From IMG/VR virus record IMGVR_UViG_2703718819_000006: 64,000 nucleotides of DNA; one strand, written 5' to 3'. How positions within the stretch are numbered: position 1 is the stretch's first letter; each line of letters opens with the position of its first letter. This document shows positions 1,148-50,588 of this stretch, one piece after another. Source of the stretch: a virus (taxonomy: Duplodnaviria; Heunggongvirae; Uroviricota; Caudoviricetes). Both the position numbers and the translations under genes were made by a program. The notes beneath the pieces are model-generated. The model worked only from the letters and a program-made list of their open reading frames with translations, was not told the origin of the DNA and did not search any database.

Positions 1148-1689
1148 TACGATGCCTCTAACTTGTCTAACTCTTTCAGCCCTTCACGTACCGCGTTCAC
1201 AATGCGTTCCAGATACTGGTATTTCGGGTTTGGTACCGTTGGCCAGTCGGCATACCACGGATCATCACCAAAGAGATTCAGCAGTTTGTTACCGACGCCG
1301 AAACAACAGCAGCTTTCTTTTACGTCATCGGCGTTTTCCGCCTCGTCCCACATTTCACGAGCCAGTACGGCGTCGATTTCTCTCTCTCTTCGTAACTTTA
1401 TGATTTCTGACTTCACGAAAAGCAGATTTGCATCGTTGTCATCGTCGACCGTGCTTAGCAGTTGAGGGTCGAAATTGTCGATTAGATAATCGTTGCTAAC
1501 TCGCTTAATGAACGTCTGCACATCATCACCGCCCATAGCAAACCAAGCCGCAGTCCACGCTTTTCCGTAGCAGGTGATGGTGATTCTTCCCTTACCAGGT
1601 TCGTAGTTTTCAATCATCACTCGAACCGGATCGAGACGCTCCAGCTCTGTCAACACAAAGGAAAGAACATCTATTTTTTCTACCTTCAT
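1147..1689 (-). CDS. hypothetical protein
   Basis: ORF track 1147..1701 begins on GTG; ATG at 1689 has GGGAGG RBS and ATGA overlap with upstream stop. Confidence 0.5.
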   Translation of the reverse strand: MKVEKIDVLSFVLTELERLDPVRVMIENYEPGKGRITITCYGKAWTAAWFAMGGDDVQTFIKRVSNDYLIDNFDPQLLSTVDDDNDANLLFVKSEIIKLRREREIDAVLAREMWDEAENADDVKESCCCFGVGNKLLNLFGDDPWYADWPTVPNPKYQYLERIVNAVREGLKELDKLEAS

Positions 1690-2327
1690 GCAGCCTCCCA
1701 CGCGCTCCAGATCAGCGATTTGTGTTTTTCATAACGTTTGATGTGTACCGGTTTCAGAAGCGCAATACCTTCAGTGACTTTCGCCTTTGCGCTTAATAAC
1801 AACGGGTGTTCTATACCTATCCTCTCCATGTACTCGACAACATCAGCGTTGGCACCAATCTCCTTCCCGTTAAAAAGTACGTCCAGCATCAGCTCTTTCT
1901 CTGCAAGGTAGATAGCTGAAAACTCAGGATCGCGACTCACGATAGAAGAGGTATTGTCGAGCAGGTCAGCCAGCTTGATCATGCGCGTCTGCATGTCGAG
2001 ATTTTGCTCCAGCTCCCGGACATTGATGATGAAACGCTGTATTCGATTGCCGTCTTCTGGCCTTGCAATGTTGGTCAGAGCCTGAACCATTTCAGCTACG
2101 TGATCACCGAAGTGATCACGAACCATCTCTATGGTTACATGGGTGTCTTCGACCACATCATGCAGAAGCGCCGCGATTTGCATCTCCACGGTTCCGTCAT
2201 GCAATGCAACAATCTCTCGGACAGCAACCGGGTGGTTGATGTAGTTTTCGCCGGTATATTTTCTTTTCTGACCAACGCCACCATGAGCGCCAGCGGCGAA
2301 CATATGTGCTTCGGAAATACTAGACAT
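1686..2327 (-). CDS. HD-domain phosphohydrolase, SpoT/RelA-hydrolase-like small alarmone ((p)ppGpp) hydrolase
   Basis: Motifs HPVAV, LHDVVEDT, IKLADLLDN match the HD hydrolase domain of SpoT/Mesh1-type enzymes. Confidence 0.7.
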   Translation of the reverse strand: MSSISEAHMFAAGAHGGVGQKRKYTGENYINHPVAVREIVALHDGTVEMQIAALLHDVVEDTHVTIEMVRDHFGDHVAEMVQALTNIARPEDGNRIQRFIINVRELEQNLDMQTRMIKLADLLDNTSSIVSRDPEFSAIYLAEKELMLDVLFNGKEIGANADVVEYMERIGIEHPLLLSAKAKVTEGIALLKPVHIKRYEKHKSLIWSAWEAA

Positions 2328-3592: not shown

Positions 3593-5278
3593 TCATTTAA
3601 CGCGTTTGAAAACGTATACGCTGACTGTGATCCCTGTGTCTTCAAACTCGTTGGTAAACGACTTCCCTCTGGCATAAACGTAATTATCCATCGTCATCCA
3701 GTCCAGTATTGGCGCAGTGCCCGGCAATACTGCTACAAGACGCCCGCCGACTTTCAGATGCCCCAGCGCAGCCAGCGTGTGCTCTCTATGACGACCAAGC
3801 GAGTACGGCGGGTTCATAACGATTTTGTCGAACTGATAACCTACGTTGTCCTCAGACCACTTTATGAAGTCGCAGCAAATCGTGTTCGTATACCCTTTTC
3901 CGCGCAGGATATCAGCGAAGAGAGGTGCGATTTCTATGCAGGTAACATCTTCCAGATCGGCGTTGATATAGGCCAGAAGATCCCCACGTCCGGCTTGAGG
4001 CTCCAGCAGCTTCTCACCAGGCTTCAATTCAGTGGCTCTGGCAACGTACTCAGCAATCAAGCGTGGGGTAGGGTAGAACTGGTGTGATTTTGTATCCGGT
4101 ATTAATCCGGTAGCCACAATCGTATTTAGCGTATGGCCGATCTCATACGGGAACTGCCAGTGCTTTTTCTCCTGCACGCCGCCAATGAAGCTCAGTGTGC
4201 GCTCAAGCTCTTCCACCTGCGACTTCTGGAGAGCTGAATCAGAGAAGTACCATACGCCTTTGTCTTTGCTTAATCGCCCGTCACGAAGCGCAGTGCGAAC
4301 CGGCACGGAGATCGTCTTCTGGATTAACCCGAACTGCTTTGGTGCCCGTGTTTTTGGCGCGGTGCGACATGGCGCGGGGATTGCAGCAGGCATACTGTAA
4401 GCCAGCACCTCATTCAACTTCCAGGCCACGTCAGGATGTATTTCAAAGTGAACGTTGCCGTTCTTGAACATCTTCACGCGCATTAGATTTCCATCGACGT
4501 TCATCCAGTCACCGGTCTGGCAGTCGTTTGCCCGATACGCAGCTGATAGCACCTCAGCAGTGCGGTTGATGGTAATAAATTCTTTGTGCGCGAAGAAATG
4601 AAGCAAGACACGCAGATCGTCGATATAGTCCTCTTTGCGATAGTTCACACTAACGCTGTCCCGCCAGAAATCAGAAATGCAGTCAGCGATTATCAGACGT
4701 TCGCTGAAACCGTTTGTCTTATTTGTCTTGTGCGCAGGACTCAGCGCCTTAAACAAGCCATACACGCGCTCAGAGAGATATTTGTGCCTGTCATTCAGCA
4801 AATTAAGCATCGTGGGTATGACCGTTTCTGCTTTGAACTCCGGTACACCAACGAACTCTTTAACCTTCATCTGGTAGCCGGTTCTGTCAGTTTTGATGAC
4901 TTCCTGTTTGCCCTCTATAAACTGCTCGCGCCACTCATCTCGACGGGAAGCTGGCATGATCAGCAAAACGTTAGTCATGTCCGTGACCTTCCTCCAGTAC
5001 TCGGCCCAAATATTCTGTTTCACCCATTCCAGATCGACTTTATCCAACCAACCTCGATTTAAACGCGAGCGATCTTCATCTGGTCGATGGTTTAGTCTCA
5101 GCAGGCGATTAATCATGTTGTGGCGTTCGTCGCCATAAACGAAGTCGTGTACCTGATACATGAAGGCGATCTCTTTCTCGCACTCGGCCACAATTTCGTG
5201 GATGACGTTCATTTCCTGCCGATAGTCGATAGCAGTGTTTGAGTTGGCATCGTCGATGATGGAAAGGGCTGTATTCAT
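3593..5278 (-). CDS. putative N6-adenine DNA methyltransferase (gamma-class core at C-terminus) with ~390 aa N-terminal domain of unknown function
   Basis: C-terminal motifs FYPTP (motif X), LEPQAGRGDLL (motif I), NPPY (motif IV) in that order; N-terminal part without recognisable motifs. Confidence 0.6.
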   Translation of the reverse strand: MNTALSIIDDANSNTAIDYRQEMNVIHEIVAECEKEIAFMYQVHDFVYGDERHNMINRLLRLNHRPDEDRSRLNRGWLDKVDLEWVKQNIWAEYWRKVTDMTNVLLIMPASRRDEWREQFIEGKQEVIKTDRTGYQMKVKEFVGVPEFKAETVIPTMLNLLNDRHKYLSERVYGLFKALSPAHKTNKTNGFSERLIIADCISDFWRDSVSVNYRKEDYIDDLRVLLHFFAHKEFITINRTAEVLSAAYRANDCQTGDWMNVDGNLMRVKMFKNGNVHFEIHPDVAWKLNEVLAYSMPAAIPAPCRTAPKTRAPKQFGLIQKTISVPVRTALRDGRLSKDKGVWYFSDSALQKSQVEELERTLSFIGGVQEKKHWQFPYEIGHTLNTIVATGLIPDTKSHQFYPTPRLIAEYVARATELKPGEKLLEPQAGRGDLLAYINADLEDVTCIEIAPLFADILRGKGYTNTICCDFIKWSEDNVGYQFDKIVMNPPYSLGRHREHTLAALGHLKVGGRLVAVLPGTAPILDWMTMDNYVYARGKSFTNEFEDTGITVSVYVFKRVK

Positions 5279-5381
5279 AATTGCACCATTAAGAAGTGAT
5301 TTGTTTAATGGTGCAATTATTTCAAAAATGAAAAGGTACTAAATAGAAATAAACAGGCAATCCTTCAAATAAAGGCATTGG

Positions 5382-5996
5382 CTAATCATACTTGGAGGTA
5401 TTTATCACCAGAATTTTGTTTGTATAAATCTTCTTAATATCCCATGTGACATTACCGGAATACCATTGACCGTTATATACTTGGTTTCCAGTTGCACCTG
5501 TCATTGTTACATAGACAGGTCTGTCGTAATCGGTTCGTCTATAGTTATATACCCCAACCATAGCAGGCATTACCGCACATGGATACCCCATATCTATTGT
5601 AAATTGAGGGTCAGAAATAGTGATAAGTTTCGCATCAAGGGGCATCATCTCACCGTGATACACCATTGCGCCTGCGCTGTTATACATGGCAATGCCATAG
5701 CCAGAATGTGGTAACACCATATCAGAAAAAGCATAAACTGTTATTGTTCCGGGGCTACCATTTACCTGATGCAATCTGAGAGCATTGTATCCGTTACTAT
5801 GCTCATGAATAAACATCATGTTCGCCTTATTACTGCTTTTTATGAAGAAAAAGCATGATTTGTTTGATGGGATTGATGTTTGAAAAACAGAACCTTTAGA
5901 TGTAGACATTGTCCCTTTATTAATCAGATTTTGCGGAGTAAATTCTGGACTCATCCACAAACTTCCATCTGATTGAGTAATTGACATCCCGAACAT
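5382..5996 (-). CDS. hypothetical protein, G/Y/N/T-rich, in AT-rich island
   Basis: ORF track 5382..6053 begins on TTG; internal ATG at 5996; low GC relative to flanks. Confidence 0.4.
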   Translation of the reverse strand: MFGMSITQSDGSLWMSPEFTPQNLINKGTMSTSKGSVFQTSIPSNKSCFFFIKSSNKANMMFIHEHSNGYNALRLHQVNGSPGTITVYAFSDMVLPHSGYGIAMYNSAGAMVYHGEMMPLDAKLITISDPQFTIDMGYPCAVMPAMVGVYNYRRTDYDRPVYVTMTGATGNQVYNGQWYSGNVTWDIKKIYTNKILVINTSKYD

Positions 5997-5998
5997 AA

Positions 5999-6280
5999 TT
6001 ATCCCCAGTATGTGTATATGTAAGAACCAAGCCCCGTATATAAATTTGACCAACTAACCGTATTTCCATTAATAGTAACTGTTGGAACAGGTAAATTAAT
6101 GTAGTTGTCGTTGTTAAGAGGCATCAATGACCACACGGCATGTAGCGATTTACCCGGTGGCGGATTGGAGTACGTCTTAGAGCCTGATGACGCAGTAAAT
6201 CGATCAAGAAAAAAAATAGGAGTAAGGAAGCCAGTAACGTTAATTCCTTTATTGTTGTAAATCCCTGTACCGTATGCCAT
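5999..6280 (-). CDS. hypothetical protein, G/Y/N/T-rich, in AT-rich island
   Basis: ORF track; ATG with AAGGA RBS. Confidence 0.4.
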   Translation of the reverse strand: MAYGTGIYNNKGINVTGFLTPIFFLDRFTASSGSKTYSNPPPGKSLHAVWSLMPLNNDNYINLPVPTVTINGNTVSWSNLYTGLGSYIYTYWG

Positions 6281-6905: not shown

Positions 6906-7202
6906 GTGTTTTTCCTAATGCTTAAACAAGTTGTTTTCTTATTGGCTTTATTGTGATGTGGCATAAAAGGGGAGCAAGCTAAACGTAAAGGTGCAAACTC
7001 TCTATTTCGGTCAACGAAACACAAGGGCCATTTGGCCCTTGTCATTAACACGTTGCTTTACGGACTAGCGGATAAGCGAAGTAGATCGCCAGACCAATGA
7101 GGACGCCATCAGAAATGACAGACATCATCTTTCCCGTAAAATCCACCAACACCGCCATCACCAGAAGAGCAATGACGGTCACAAGCCGGAATCTCTCAAG
7201 CA

Positions 7203-7628
7203 TTAGAGATAAGCATCCAGTGACAACTGAAGCGCCTGTGCGATCTTTTTCAGGGCCAGCTCTTCTTGTTCGCCAATACCGTCTTGGTCGGCAATATCAA
7301 GGCACAGACACAGTACATCTACTGCATCATTAGTCCCGGCCACATCAGCCAGCTCACGTAAAGCCTGGGCATTAGCGCGGCGCGGTGAGGCTTCGTATTG
7401 AGCACGGATATTGGCACTCATTTGGGCAATCTCACCAGCAAACGGAGAAAACGCAGGCAGAGCTGCAATTGTTTTCTCAAGAATGGAAATTTCCTTTGCG
7501 TCGCATGTGCCATCGGCATAGGAGATCATGTACGCGCCCCACACGGTGGCTTCAACCGCATCTCGGTTCTCCATTTTTTTGACCTCGATAACAGCTTTAC
7601 GAGTTTTCTTTTTGAATAAACCTAACAT
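7203..7628 (-). CDS. TerB-like domain protein (tellurite-resistance TerB fold), putative
   Basis: Pattern ADGxxDxKEIxxLxxxI and acidic C-terminal helices typical of TerB-like proteins; assignment from memory. Confidence 0.45.
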   Translation of the reverse strand: MLGLFKKKTRKAVIEVKKMENRDAVEATVWGAYMISYADGTCDAKEISILEKTIAALPAFSPFAGEIAQMSANIRAQYEASPRRANAQALRELADVAGTNDAVDVLCLCLDIADQDGIGEQEELALKKIAQALQLSLDAYL

Positions 7629-7919: not shown

Positions 7920-8414
7920 TTAGTCACAGCATGATCCTGAGTAACTGGATGAACTTGAGGTATCGCATCCACCGTCATCCCATCCAGAGTGACAGGACGC
8001 TCTACTGGAGTGGTGGTAATTGTCGTCGACGGAGGTGTGGTGATGGATGAACCCGGCATCAAAAGGCTCTGGCCGGCTGGAACGGCTACCGTCGCCAGTG
8101 AAACTATAATGAGAACGTAGGCCATTGGTTTCAGCCTCTTTCTTTGAAAATTTTCCATTCGAACTGTCCTTGTTGTTTTTCTCCTTCACTAAAGGCCGTG
8201 TACTTTTCGCTTCGCGTGAAGAACCAGAGGTAACAATCGCCCCCACGTTCGCAACAACTGACGCTTGCTTATCTAAACGTTCATTCAGCAACCGAACGGC
8301 AGTCTCTAGTTCATCAAGACGTGACAGAACACGACCGCTAAATAATTCGGCCAAAATTTGACGTAGTGAACGAGGACGTTTAGTTGCAGAAGTGAAATAG
8401 GTTTGACGTGCCAT
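7920..8414 (-). CDS. hypothetical protein (N-terminal half coiled-coil-like; C-terminal half low complexity and overlapped by a signal-peptide ORF in another frame)
   Basis: ORF track 7920..8414 and overlapping 7907..8158. Confidence 0.35.
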   Translation of the reverse strand: MARQTYFTSATKRPRSLRQILAELFSGRVLSRLDELETAVRLLNERLDKQASVVANVGAIVTSGSSREAKSTRPLVKEKNNKDSSNGKFSKKEAETNGLRSHYSFTGDGSRSSRPEPFDAGFIHHHTSVDDNYHHSSRASCHSGWDDGGCDTSSSSSYSGSCCD

Positions 8415-8559
8415 GTGGACTCCATCCAGTGTCAGAAAGAGTTGCGGCTGGCGATTGCCAGCCGCCTTTCTCGTTCCATCCTGGAACTGTGTCTTACCGA
8501 CACATTGTCATCCTGACGCCGATAAGATACATGATTTAAAATGATAGGTAAACACTTAC

Positions 8560-9153
8560 TTACTGCTTGTTGTAAACAAAACCAATATCTTTCTTGTGAG
8601 GCATATCTGCTGCGGAAAAAGCTGCGATCTTCGCGAGTCGATCACATATTTCATTTTCACGATGCCCGGCGTGACCTTTAACCCACTTCCAGCGAACATT
8701 ATGTCGACTTGCAGCCTCATCCAGACGCTTCCACAGATCAACATTCTTTACCGGTTTTTTGTCAGAAGTCACCCATCCATTGCGTTTCCACCATTTCATC
8801 CACTGTGTCATGCCGTTTTTCAGATACTGGCTATCAGAGTGCAAAATAACGTTGCATGGATATTTCAAACGCTCCAGCCCGATAAGTGCCCCCATCATCT
8901 CCATGCGGTTATTGGTGGTGCTATGAAAACCATCTGAGAACTCGCGTTCCTCACCACGATACTGGAGAACGATACCGTAACCGCCCGGGCCACCCGGATT
9001 TTTAAGGCAAGAGCCATCACTAAAGATTTTCACGGTTTTAAGCTGGGGATTGAACTCTACGACAGGCGTTGTGGGATTGGTGCGGGGGGAATTTTTGTTT
9101 TTGGCTTTTTTGCGAGTTTTTGCTTGCGATCGAGCTGGTGTCTTCGTCGTCAT
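8560..9153 (-). CDS. rnhA: ribonuclease HI
   Basis: Strong similarity to RNase HI (FSDGSC..GGYG, TNNRME, KGHAGHxENExCDxLA); start moved to ATG with AGGAG RBS. Confidence 0.85.
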
Positions 9154-9735
9154 ATAAACTCCTGAATCAAGCGCCGCGCCGATTTTTCCTCGCGCGTGCG
9201 CACACGCGTGCGTGTTAATAATTATTAAAATAAACAAATTACTTCCCAGAACAGGTTTTTATAAACCTGAACTGAACGAACGAAGTGAGTGAAGTTCACC
9301 TCGAACGAAGTGAGAGGTTGTCTTTTCAGGTAATACTCTCCCAGGGAGGTGAGTATAAAAATCTCTCACCAACCTGGTCGTTTCATAACCTGAAAAGTTA
9401 TGGTCTAAGTCTACTGCCAGCTTAGACTTGGGAAGTTATGGATGACAGCACCCCAGAACCGAGATCTTCCCACACTTTATGAAGGGGAGTACTGGATTCA
9501 ACCTCTCGAAACACCCCAGACTCGACAATCATAAAGTGACCCTTGTCTCCGCTCACTTTGGTTCCCCCTTCCCCGACACCTAAACGGCACCAGTTCTACG
9601 CTGGTAGTGAGCTTTTTTAAACCTGACGCCAGTGACGCTTACCCCCACCCATCAGGTCGAGTCTCCAGTCTACGACTGGAAACTATCAGATCTTAGCACT
9701 TACAATTCACTTTATGAATAGTTTGTACTTATCTA

Positions 9736-10151: not shown

Positions 10152-10745
10152 CTAAGCAACCTTCTTTGATGGTCTTTTTTTCCTGATCACATTCGCAGGA
10201 TCATACCCTCCCAGACTTTTCATGACGTCCAAAGGGATCTTGCTTATAGAGTGCCCAGCGTCCTGACAGAATCCTCGAAAAACAACGAGCATACTGCCAC
10301 CTGGGTTGATGTTTACTTCTACCTGACCCAGATTGACGTCAGGCTCGACAAACGCTACGCGGCCACCAGACAGAATAATCGTCTCATTCGCACACTCTGT
10401 TGCACGCTCATACCACTTTGTATCTAGGGATTGAGGAATTAGCATCACTGTTGTAACTCCGCGAGCCTGCTCACGTATAGCAGCATCAATCCAGGGGGAG
10501 ATTTTGGAGTAGGGTGGATTGAGGAAGGCAATTGTACCTGGCTGTCCCCATTCAGATTTCAAAGCATCACGCTCAATGCCTATGAAATTAGGCAGCTTTG
10601 CGTTGTCCTTGTTGCAGGCAACGTCAACATCAAATGTCACTCCAAGATAACGTTGAATGGCAGAAAACAGCCAATCAGGTGTTCTCCAGAGGTCACGAAG
10701 AGAGTTGTCGCGCTTTCGCTGTTTGATTTTTTCGGCTGCAATCAT
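10152..10745 (-). CDS. phage Dam-like N6-adenine DNA methyltransferase
   Basis: WRTPDWLF, FDVDVACN and NPPYS motifs characteristic of the small phage N-6-adenine methyltransferase family. Confidence 0.7.
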   Translation of the reverse strand: MIAAEKIKQRKRDNSLRDLWRTPDWLFSAIQRYLGVTFDVDVACNKDNAKLPNFIGIERDALKSEWGQPGTIAFLNPPYSKISPWIDAAIREQARGVTTVMLIPQSLDTKWYERATECANETIILSGGRVAFVEPDVNLGQVEVNINPGGSMLVVFRGFCQDAGHSISKIPLDVMKSLGGYDPANVIRKKRPSKKVA

Positions 10746-49608: not shown

Positions 49609-49695
49609 TGGCGGAGAGTAATGGAATCGAACCATCATCGCTTGCGCAATGGGACGGTTTTCAAGACCGCTTGAGCACCATGCTCCCTACTCTCC
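49609..49695 (-). tRNA. tRNA-Ser (anticodon TGA), type II with long variable arm
   Basis: Hand-folded: acceptor GGAGAGT/ACTCTCC, anticodon loop CTTGAAA, T-loop GGTTCGATTCC, encoded GCCA 3' end. Confidence 0.7.
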
Positions 49696-50341
49696 AATTG
49701 TTGTGGTGCCGGGTGCCTCCCGGTGTCCTTTGGCTGGTTATCCACCGTGAACGGGGCCACAGATGTCATAAGATGAGCAATATAACCATTTCCCCGCGTG
49801 CGCTTAGCCGCATTCACCACAACGGAAAGAGCATTCACATCTCGCGTGCCGCCACGAATAGCAACTCAGAGAGTCGAACTCTGAAAATGCTCTTACCTGT
49901 TGTGTGCTGTGTCACTCCCTCCGCTATTACCTGGCTTTGCCTCGACCTTTTAGGTTGCGTCCGATGATAAACAGGGCTGTCGGAAATTTGTCTGTGGCAC
50001 AGCGATAAGAGAACTCGATGCATTTAAGCCAAGCCCCATATGGGAAGTTCTCTTATCTGTTGTGCGCTCCGTTTCGTGGAGCTAACGGCGGGTGAACAGG
50101 CCGCACCAGGTTGGACATATTTCAGCGTTATGCTGTTGCAAGAGAGCCAAATTGTGATGGTCGGTGCTGAACTCCGACACAGGGTTGTAGCAAGCCCCGC
50201 AAAGCGCGCACTACTGTAGTTACGGCACATCAGCCTGTGCATTCATCACAATGTTGAGAACACTGGTTGTCACGCGGCAACGCAACATTTATTCATAAAT
50301 TGGGATATGAACCCGTTACGCCAATGTTCTCAATATTATGT

Positions 50342-50417
50342 TGGTGCCGGTTAACGGACTTGAACCGCTGGCCATTCGCTTACAAAGCGACTGCTCTACC
50401 AACTGAGCTAAACCGGC
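50342..50417 (-). tRNA. tRNA-Thr (anticodon TGT)
   Basis: Hand-folded: acceptor GCCGGTT/AACCGGC, D-arm GCTCAGTTGGTAGAGC, anticodon loop TTTGTAA, encoded CCA. Confidence 0.7.
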
Positions 50418-50421
50418 AATT

Positions 50422-50508
50422 TGGTGGGGAGTGATGGAGTCGAACCACCCGAGTCGCAATGACGGTAGATTTACAGTCTACACCGCTACCTCTACGGACT
50501 AACTCCCC
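50422..50508 (-). tRNA. tRNA-Tyr (anticodon GTA), type II
   Basis: Anticodon arm GTAGA-CTGTAAA-TCTAC, T-loop GGTTCGACTCC, acceptor GGGGAGT/ACTCCCC, encoded CCA. Confidence 0.75.
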
Positions 50509-50513
50509 TAAAT

Positions 50514-50588
50514 TGGCGATGGTGGGTGGATTCGAACCACCGACCAGTTGGTTAACAGCCAACTGCTCTACCGCTGAGCTACACCATC
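50514..50588 (-). tRNA. tRNA-Asn (anticodon GTT)
   Basis: Anticodon arm GTTGG-CTGTTAA-CCAAC, T-loop GGTTCGAATCC, acceptor GATGGTG/CACCATC. Confidence 0.75.

Follow-up and report, generated by a model that had tools for sequence, protein, structure and literature searches.

A DUF4942-linked gamma-type orphan methyltransferase of an SSU5/pHCM2-type phage-plasmid of Escherichia coli, with a possible role in protection from restriction

The leading regions of plasmids are enriched in orphan methylases that are thought to protect entering DNA (PMC11541004). Such protection has been shown for M.EcoGIX which, like M.BceJIII, is a single-strand-specific plasmid N6-methyladenine (m6A) methyltransferase of the beta class with a DPPY motif (PMC7736820). 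Here we describe an orphan enzyme of a different class, encoded at 3593-5278 on the minus strand of a 64,000-nucleotide stretch of viral DNA (IMGVR_UViG_2703718819_000006; hereafter the window). The 561-amino-acid (aa) protein joins a DUF4942 region to a gamma-type methyltransferase domain. We consider it fairly probable (roughly 0.6) that this protein is an S-adenosylmethionine (SAM)-dependent m6A DNA methyltransferase in which DUF4942 serves as a fixed module for DNA binding or target choice, and that it protects its element from restriction alongside a second, T1-Dam-like enzyme.

Judging by sequence identity, the window is a piece of an SSU5/pHCM2-type phage-plasmid of E. coli, because the region around the 561-aa gene matches non-mobilizable E. 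coli plasmids of ~110 kb, pCTX (NZ_CP047004) among them, at 99.9% identity, the same region is 98% identical to Escherichia phage Cyrano, and identity to Salmonella phage SSU5 is 89.5% across the methylase gene and some of its flanking sequence. The gene is not a chance open reading frame (ORF), since PHROG 6263 ("DNA methyltransferase") matched the protein over its full length (aa 1-561 on positions 1-548 of the 548-position profile, E 1.2e-299) and 33 contigs on record carry the exact sequence, under the name "DUF4942 domain-containing protein". Its homologue SSU5_095 is annotated as "DNA methyltransferase". The gene and its parts are arranged as follows.

3593..5278, minus strand: coding sequence with an ATG start, 561 aa, DUF4942 plus gamma-type methyltransferase; same length and place as WP_021520151.1 of pCTX; homologue of SSU5_095
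5033..5278, minus strand: N-terminal helical extension, aa 1-82, acidic and poorly conserved (model, alignment)
4331..5032, minus strand: conserved DUF4942 core, aa ~83-316, basic, isoelectric point (pI) ~9 (Pfam, 147-sequence alignment, model)
4103..4321, minus strand: small alpha/beta linker domain, aa ~320-392
3596..4090, minus strand: C-terminal catalytic domain, aa 397-561 (motifs, profile matches, model)
4064-4078, minus strand: motif X, FYPTP, aa 401-405
3974-4003, minus strand: motif I, EPQAGRGDLL, aa 426-435
3803-3814, minus strand: motif IV, NPPY, aa 489-492
3623-3646, minus strand: motif VIII-like, FEDTGITV, aa 545-552

The motifs X, I, and IV that the initial annotation had read in the C-terminal part of the protein were found there, and together with the motif VIII-like element they follow the order X-I-IV-VIII of the gamma class in the Malone/Wilson classification. 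A C-terminal target-recognition domain (TRD) after motif VIII, also a gamma-class feature, is missing as had been claimed: the protein stops at aa 561, 9 residues past the motif VIII strand, and all of its extra domains lie N-terminal to the catalytic core. In an alignment of 147 diverse representatives of the family, with pairwise identities of at most about 50%, the catalytic residues N489, P491, E426, G430, and H500 were invariant. The catalytic tetrapeptide agreed with (N/D)PP(Y/F/W), with N489 and P491 in 100% of the sequences, P490 in 99%, and Y or F at position 492. By HMMER, aa 403-494 aligned weakly (E 0.13), motif for motif, with residues 22-110 of M.TaqI (TPPEVV, LEPACAHG, and NPPY). 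PADLOC models of Type II methyltransferases matched within aa 394-523 (E 3.8e-10), as did mad2 (E 8.5e-16), and Pfam gave N6_Mtase and RrnaAD on the catalytic region, both below threshold. An AlphaFold2 model built from a 31-sequence alignment (mean predicted local distance difference test score, pLDDT, 83; predicted template modelling score 0.67; pLDDT 82 for a separate model of aa 1-396) was compared with the PDB by Foldseek, and HsdM (7eew), M.TaqI (1aqj), and CamA (7lni) were matched at E ~1e-6 to 1e-7. By its motifs and predicted fold, aa 397-561 is a minimal gamma-type Rossmann amino-methyltransferase core of ~165 aa.

The ~390 aa in front of the motifs had been called unassigned. They instead carry a catalogued domain, Pfam DUF4942 (PF13708), which scored 74 bits over aa 140-295 (gathering cut-off 25), and the domain was also matched in all 17 of 17 aligned homologues. 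Thus, the initial annotation holds as to an orphan methylase of gamma type and fails as to an unassigned N-terminus. Four parts can be distinguished in the model (aa 1-82, ~83-316, ~320-392, and 397-561). The first, an acidic helical hairpin, is specific to the enterobacterial phage-plasmid subfamily, and many members of the DUF4942 family align first from aa ~80-92. Because PHROGs 16000 and 25525 hold this N-terminal piece alone, the gene appears to be split or truncated in some phages. The DUF4942 core, modeled as helices and three small sheets, was as conserved as the catalytic motifs among the 147 representatives: W95, L179, S180, H183, T185, N186, H277, and N289 were invariant, and F148, I196, D221 (146/147), W258, D262, and L292 were kept in at least 98%. 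Two consensus blocks can be written for it, namely R-x2-F-[FL]-A-E-R-V-D-G-x-F-x2-L-S-x2-H-x-T-N-x-P-x-G-F-x-K-R-M-I and G-x-W-x3-D-G-G-A-x-R-x-[RK]-x-[YF]-K-K-G-T-x-H-x-E-x-H-P-[DE]-x-A-W-R-L-N. Across the family the median pI of the core is 9.1 (range 8.0-9.9) versus 5.3 for the catalytic domain, and this basic pI, with the conserved Arg/Lys positions of the core, supports DUF4942 as a putative DNA-binding module. The linker domain also occurs together with the methylase in a family of 1,259-aa phage proteins (phrog_9133 on aa 328-560), and a weak resemblance to winged-helix DNA-binding domains may reside in it. Searches of the N-terminal profile against PDB chain sequences returned noise alone (ZorA and UDP-glucose dehydrogenase, E >= 0.025), and Foldseek against the viral BFVD returned uncharacterised phage proteins of 250-300 aa and nothing else. 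In the paper library searched, we found no functional data on DUF4942, SSU5, pHCM2, or phage-plasmid methylation, and the papers checked that mention DUF4942 list it in gene tables alone.

Judged from gene content, the 561-aa protein is an orphan (solitary) methyltransferase. The lack of a cognate restriction endonuclease nearby, as proposed earlier, was borne out in a Pfam scan of the 10 flanking ORFs, which gave HD-domain and TerB matches alone and no restriction-enzyme family. Likewise, no restriction enzyme is annotated around the gene in Cyrano or SSU5 or in the whole of the 112-kb near-identical plasmid pCTX; the PLSDB gene table of the latter is incomplete, and small nucleases of a novel kind are possible.

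A separate small Dam-like methyltransferase had also been proposed, and curated profiles agree.

10152..10745, minus strand: second orphan methyltransferase, 197 aa, T1-Dam/phage_N6A_met family, NPPY at aa 76-79 (Pfam, NCBIfam, BLASTP)

This protein scored 130.6 bits against Pfam Dam PF05869 (cut-off 28.1, E 6e-38) and 113.6 bits against NCBIfam TIGR01712 phage_N6A_met (cut-off 97.05), and by BLASTP it shares 25% identity with phage T1 Dam across 185 aa (E 1e-18); the exact protein is already in public databases. M.EcoT1Dam and M.EcoVT2Dam methylate GATC (PMC4996451, PMC6602927), and a 35%-identical relative of T1 Dam already has off-target activity (PMC4996451). By analogy, the 197-aa enzyme probably targets GATC as well, a specificity that cannot be assumed at 25% identity. 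M.EcoGII was considered as a relative and ruled out, as it belongs to the beta class.

We searched for relatives of the 561-aa protein exhaustively with HMMER among 1.84 billion cluster representatives (50% identity clusters). There were 7,522 matches at E<=1e-3, and no fewer than 364 clusters reached E<=1e-30; of the best 150 matches, almost all are ~500-600 aa long and aligned over both domains, indicating a fused architecture. A scan of one genome per species found 271 relatives in alpha-, beta-, and gamma-Proteobacteria. The carriers are phage-plasmids, IncHI2 plasmids, and lambdoid prophages of Proteobacteria, with one further homologue in another phage. In the lambdoid prophages, the copies stand in early operons between cI/cro-like and replication genes and adjoin N6_N4 and C5 methylases. 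IncHI2 conjugative plasmids carry a full-length copy, 30% identical, that adjoins a Dam-family methylase, and on a plasmid-like contig a full-length DUF4942 methylase adjoins a D12/Dam methylase and umuDC-like genes (Peptidase_S24, IMS). Another DNA methylase was found within 4 kb at 18 of 80 genome loci, a lower bound obtained with six methylase queries.

5351-6163 and 7944-9635 of the examined stretch of IncHI2 plasmid pRDB9: pair of methylases, one of the DUF4942 and one of the Dam/D12 family

In the window, the IncHI2 plasmids, and the plasmid-like contig alike, a DUF4942 enzyme is paired with one of Dam type; in the latter two, the DUF4942 and Dam/D12 methylase genes are divergently placed.

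From these observations, the following mechanism may be proposed. The 561-aa enzyme would methylate adenine at N6 in DNA, and the DUF4942 core, perhaps with the linker domain, would replace the missing C-terminal TRD in DNA binding and target selection. As DUF4942 equals the catalytic motifs in conservation even between very distant hosts, its bearers would probably all recognise a common target, either fixed or else relaxed or structure-dependent, and would not have diversified in specificity. The 561-aa protein and the T1-Dam-like enzyme would both methylate the DNA of their own element during replication or after entry, and by the context and by comparison with orphan methyltransferases of phages and plasmids, the methylated DNA would then resist restriction in new hosts. 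The protective role is supported by the mobile-element contexts of the family, in which no endonuclease is annotated or detected and the gene often stands near other orphan DNA methylases, and by the homology of the catalytic core to a stand-alone methylase of the IncF leading region.

We weighed several other explanations of the same data. It is possible, if unlikely, that one or both methylases serve epigenetic housekeeping of the element by marking sites for packaging, for control of the replication origin, or for the lysis-lysogeny switch. Dam methylation serves pac cleavage and oriR in phage P1. Both genes stand among replication and nucleotide-metabolism genes in one direction, the strong conservation of DUF4942 implies one fixed target, and host Dam is already present, so that protection does not obviously require another GATC enzyme. 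However, the family occurs in unrelated elements (lambdoid prophages, IncHI2 plasmids, and phage-plasmids) with different replication and packaging systems, and this breadth favors a general protective role over element-specific regulation. In addition, anti-restriction sets typically show such clustering of orphan methylases from different classes.

We see a rather small chance that DUF4942 is a new fold that gives the whole family an unusual mode of methylation, either promiscuous or dependent on structures such as single-stranded DNA or the replication fork, or else a second catalytic activity. An unusual mode of this kind would, by analogy, be functionally like that of M.EcoGIX, although independently evolved, and would act on incoming or replicating DNA of mobile elements.

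A non-DNA substrate is improbable. In such a case, the enzyme would modify RNA (m6A or N2-methylguanine) or a protein glutamine in the manner of HemK/PrmC, RsmC/RsmD, or RlmF, with DUF4942 recognising the substrate. The NCBIfam matches of the 561-aa protein, all weak, are to rRNA adenine methylases alone (KsgA and Erm), some homologues match Pfam MTS PF05175, and the element carries tRNAs and a methionyl-tRNA synthetase (MetRS) gene. The full-model Foldseek search against the PDB gave nothing beyond generic class-I methylase matches, and RNA methyltransferases were mixed into these. On the other hand, the set of FYPTP, EPxAGxG, NPP[YF], and F..TGV.V is of the DNA gamma-group type and M.TaqI is the best sequence match among solved structures. 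In PADLOC and PHROG, the protein matched DNA methylases as well as the methylase modules found in giant polyvalent proteins of phages. The recurrent neighbours are bona fide DNA methylases, and the core is homologous to a gene of the IncF leading region.

Still less probable is a bifunctional enzyme with DUF4942 as a second catalytic domain, for instance a divergent nuclease, which would make a Type IIG-like fusion, or another DNA modification activity. This idea draws on the invariant or near-invariant polar residues H183, T185, N186, D221, R223, D262, H277, E279, and N289, and on D262...E279-x-H281, which sits on a predicted beta-hairpin with a helix after it, a layout loosely reminiscent of PD-(D/E)xK or beta-beta-alpha-Me enzymes. 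Scans with Pfam, NCBIfam, and PADLOC found no nuclease, helicase, or other enzyme family in the N-terminal region, so that it did not prove to be a known restriction or helicase module, an outcome that would have spoken against the initial annotation. We did not adopt a PD-(D/E)xK or HNH reading of the hairpin-plus-helix layout D262...H277-x-E279-x-H281...N289, because there was no family match and no nuclease of these types was among the structural matches. A Type IIG fusion was ruled out, as the PADLOC IIG model matched aa 456-521 alone, no nuclease family or fold was found, and a C-terminal TRD is lacking. Finally, membership in a host-benefiting defence system on the phage-plasmid, such as MADS- or BREX-like methylation-dependent immunity, is hardly credible, since mad2 of MADS is the best PADLOC match but that match is limited to the generic catalytic core, and no partner genes of known defence systems are adjacent here or at distant homologues.

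The gene is thus ordinary in kind: the category of phage and plasmid orphan methyltransferases, the DUF4942/PHROG 6263 family, and the exact protein are all already known, and nothing contradicts what would be expected of a catalogued orphan methyltransferase. The family is carried by SSU5/pHCM2-type phage-plasmids and IncHI2 plasmids, which are vehicles of extended-spectrum beta-lactamase, mcr, and other resistance genes in Enterobacteriaceae. If the enzyme blunts restriction barriers, it helps to set the host range of these elements, and its motif could be used as a methylation signature that links them to their hosts in metagenomes. Moreover, DUF4942 is a large and highly conserved domain family, and knowing what one member does would give an annotation to thousands of genes.

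Directly upstream of the methylase gene lies a stem-loop with a folding energy of -20.6 kcal/mol (z -6.1).

5277..5320, minus strand: 16-bp perfect RNA hairpin, arms including TTGCACCATTAA / TTAATGGTGCAA, directly upstream of the methylase gene

The GGUG bases, which resemble a Shine-Dalgarno sequence, and the first two bases of the AUG fall within the 3' arm. Cyrano has the identical hairpin, SSU5 has a version with a diverged 5' arm, and the Klebsiella and IncHI2 homologues lack it. A conserved regulatory element is ruled out by this divergence and absence, and the hairpin may be a lineage-specific translational brake on the methylase gene. Elsewhere in the window, the arm motif recurs no more often than chance would predict.

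By k-mer anchoring to pCTX, the first ~26 kb of the window form one minus-strand block of accessory, nucleotide-metabolism, and replication genes, and repA, dnaE, a DnaB-like helicase, ligase, a tRNA cluster, and the first tail genes lie beyond. Both methylase genes stand among nrdAB, thyX, DHFR, exonuclease, and RNase H genes with the same direction of transcription, and in Cyrano and SSU5 the methylase gene is flanked on both sides by genes annotated as Ead/Ea22-like, Eaa-like, and hypothetical proteins. Between 2400 and 6400 we found no sigma-70-like promoter (0 versus 7.3 +/- 2.5 expected from shuffles), and the one terminator-like site there is on the opposite strand. The absence of promoters in this interval and the minus-strand orientation of all genes in the first ~26 kb suggest transcription as a very long polycistronic unit. 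Other features of the window are as follows.

1686-2327, minus strand: HD-domain phosphohydrolase (HD_4), accessory gene in the methylase block
7203-7628, minus strand: TerB-family protein, accessory gene in the methylase block
8560-9237, minus strand: RNase H ORF with a long N-terminal extension from a TTG start, in the methylase block
49609-50588, minus strand: tRNA cluster Ser-TGA, Thr-TGT, Tyr-GTA, Asn-GTT

In the nearest plasmid match, an ISEcp1-blaCTX-M-55 unit is located just past the tRNA-cluster region; the insertion is absent from the window, which is without a CTX-M gene.

Among known systems, the 561-aa protein resembles the gamma-group N6-adenine methyltransferases (M.TaqI, Type I HsdM, and CamA) in its motif order X-I-IV-VIII, in NPPY and F..TGV.V, and in its best solved-structure matches. 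Unlike M.TaqI and CamA, it has no C-terminal TRD, and unlike HsdM, it has no HsdS partner. It further differs from the group in that its ~165-aa core is preceded by DUF4942 and in that the sequence similarity is marginal (E 0.13). Another counterpart of the core is the 187-aa "class I SAM-dependent methyltransferase" of the IncF leading region (WP_001298559), with 33% identity (E 1e-15). This protein has QxFxSP, EPSAGxG, and NPPF, is an orphan among anti-defence genes, and is a stand-alone core with neither DUF4942 nor any recognisable TRD.

6914-7477 of the examined stretch of plasmid pECO-bc6: stand-alone 187-aa IncF methyltransferase, counterpart of 3596-4090 of the window

The 187-aa gene lies between DUF3560 and ssb, near psiB, ParB-like, antirestriction, and beta-class "DNA methylase" genes, and thousands of IncF-type conjugative plasmids have it in their leading region. 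DUF3560 was considered as a split-off equivalent of DUF4942 and proved unrelated (hhalign probability 0.4%).

The likeness to M.EcoGIX and M.BceJIII (PMC7736820) is that of an orphan enzyme of mobile elements, and an analogy in function is possible. Identity with the M.EcoGIX family is ruled out by the different class and the permuted motif order of the latter, with DPPY first and motif I last; the 227-aa IncF "DNA methylase", taken as an M.EcoGIX-type homologue (DPPY at aa 27-30, motif I at 168-176), showed no significant similarity to the 561-aa protein (best E 0.057). The core also matches PHROGs of 1,400-3,900-aa proteins that resemble the giant polyvalent protein DarB of P1 (phrog_15406, 11358, 10691, and 5143; E 1e-5 to 1e-19). 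The 561-aa protein is not a member of this DarB-like group, has no helicase or other polyvalent modules, and gives no evidence of virion packaging. Its 197-aa companion is like the phage T1 Dam/M.EcoVT2Dam family (PF05869, TIGR01712), above both curated thresholds. The closest relatives of the 561-aa protein are the PF13708/PHROG 6263 proteins, such as SSU5_095, CYRAN_90 of Cyrano, and WP_032084800 of IncHI2 plasmids. They share the same two-domain architecture from end to end, at 86-99% identity for the phage-plasmid copies and ~30% for the IncHI2 and prophage copies, and are the family to which it belongs.

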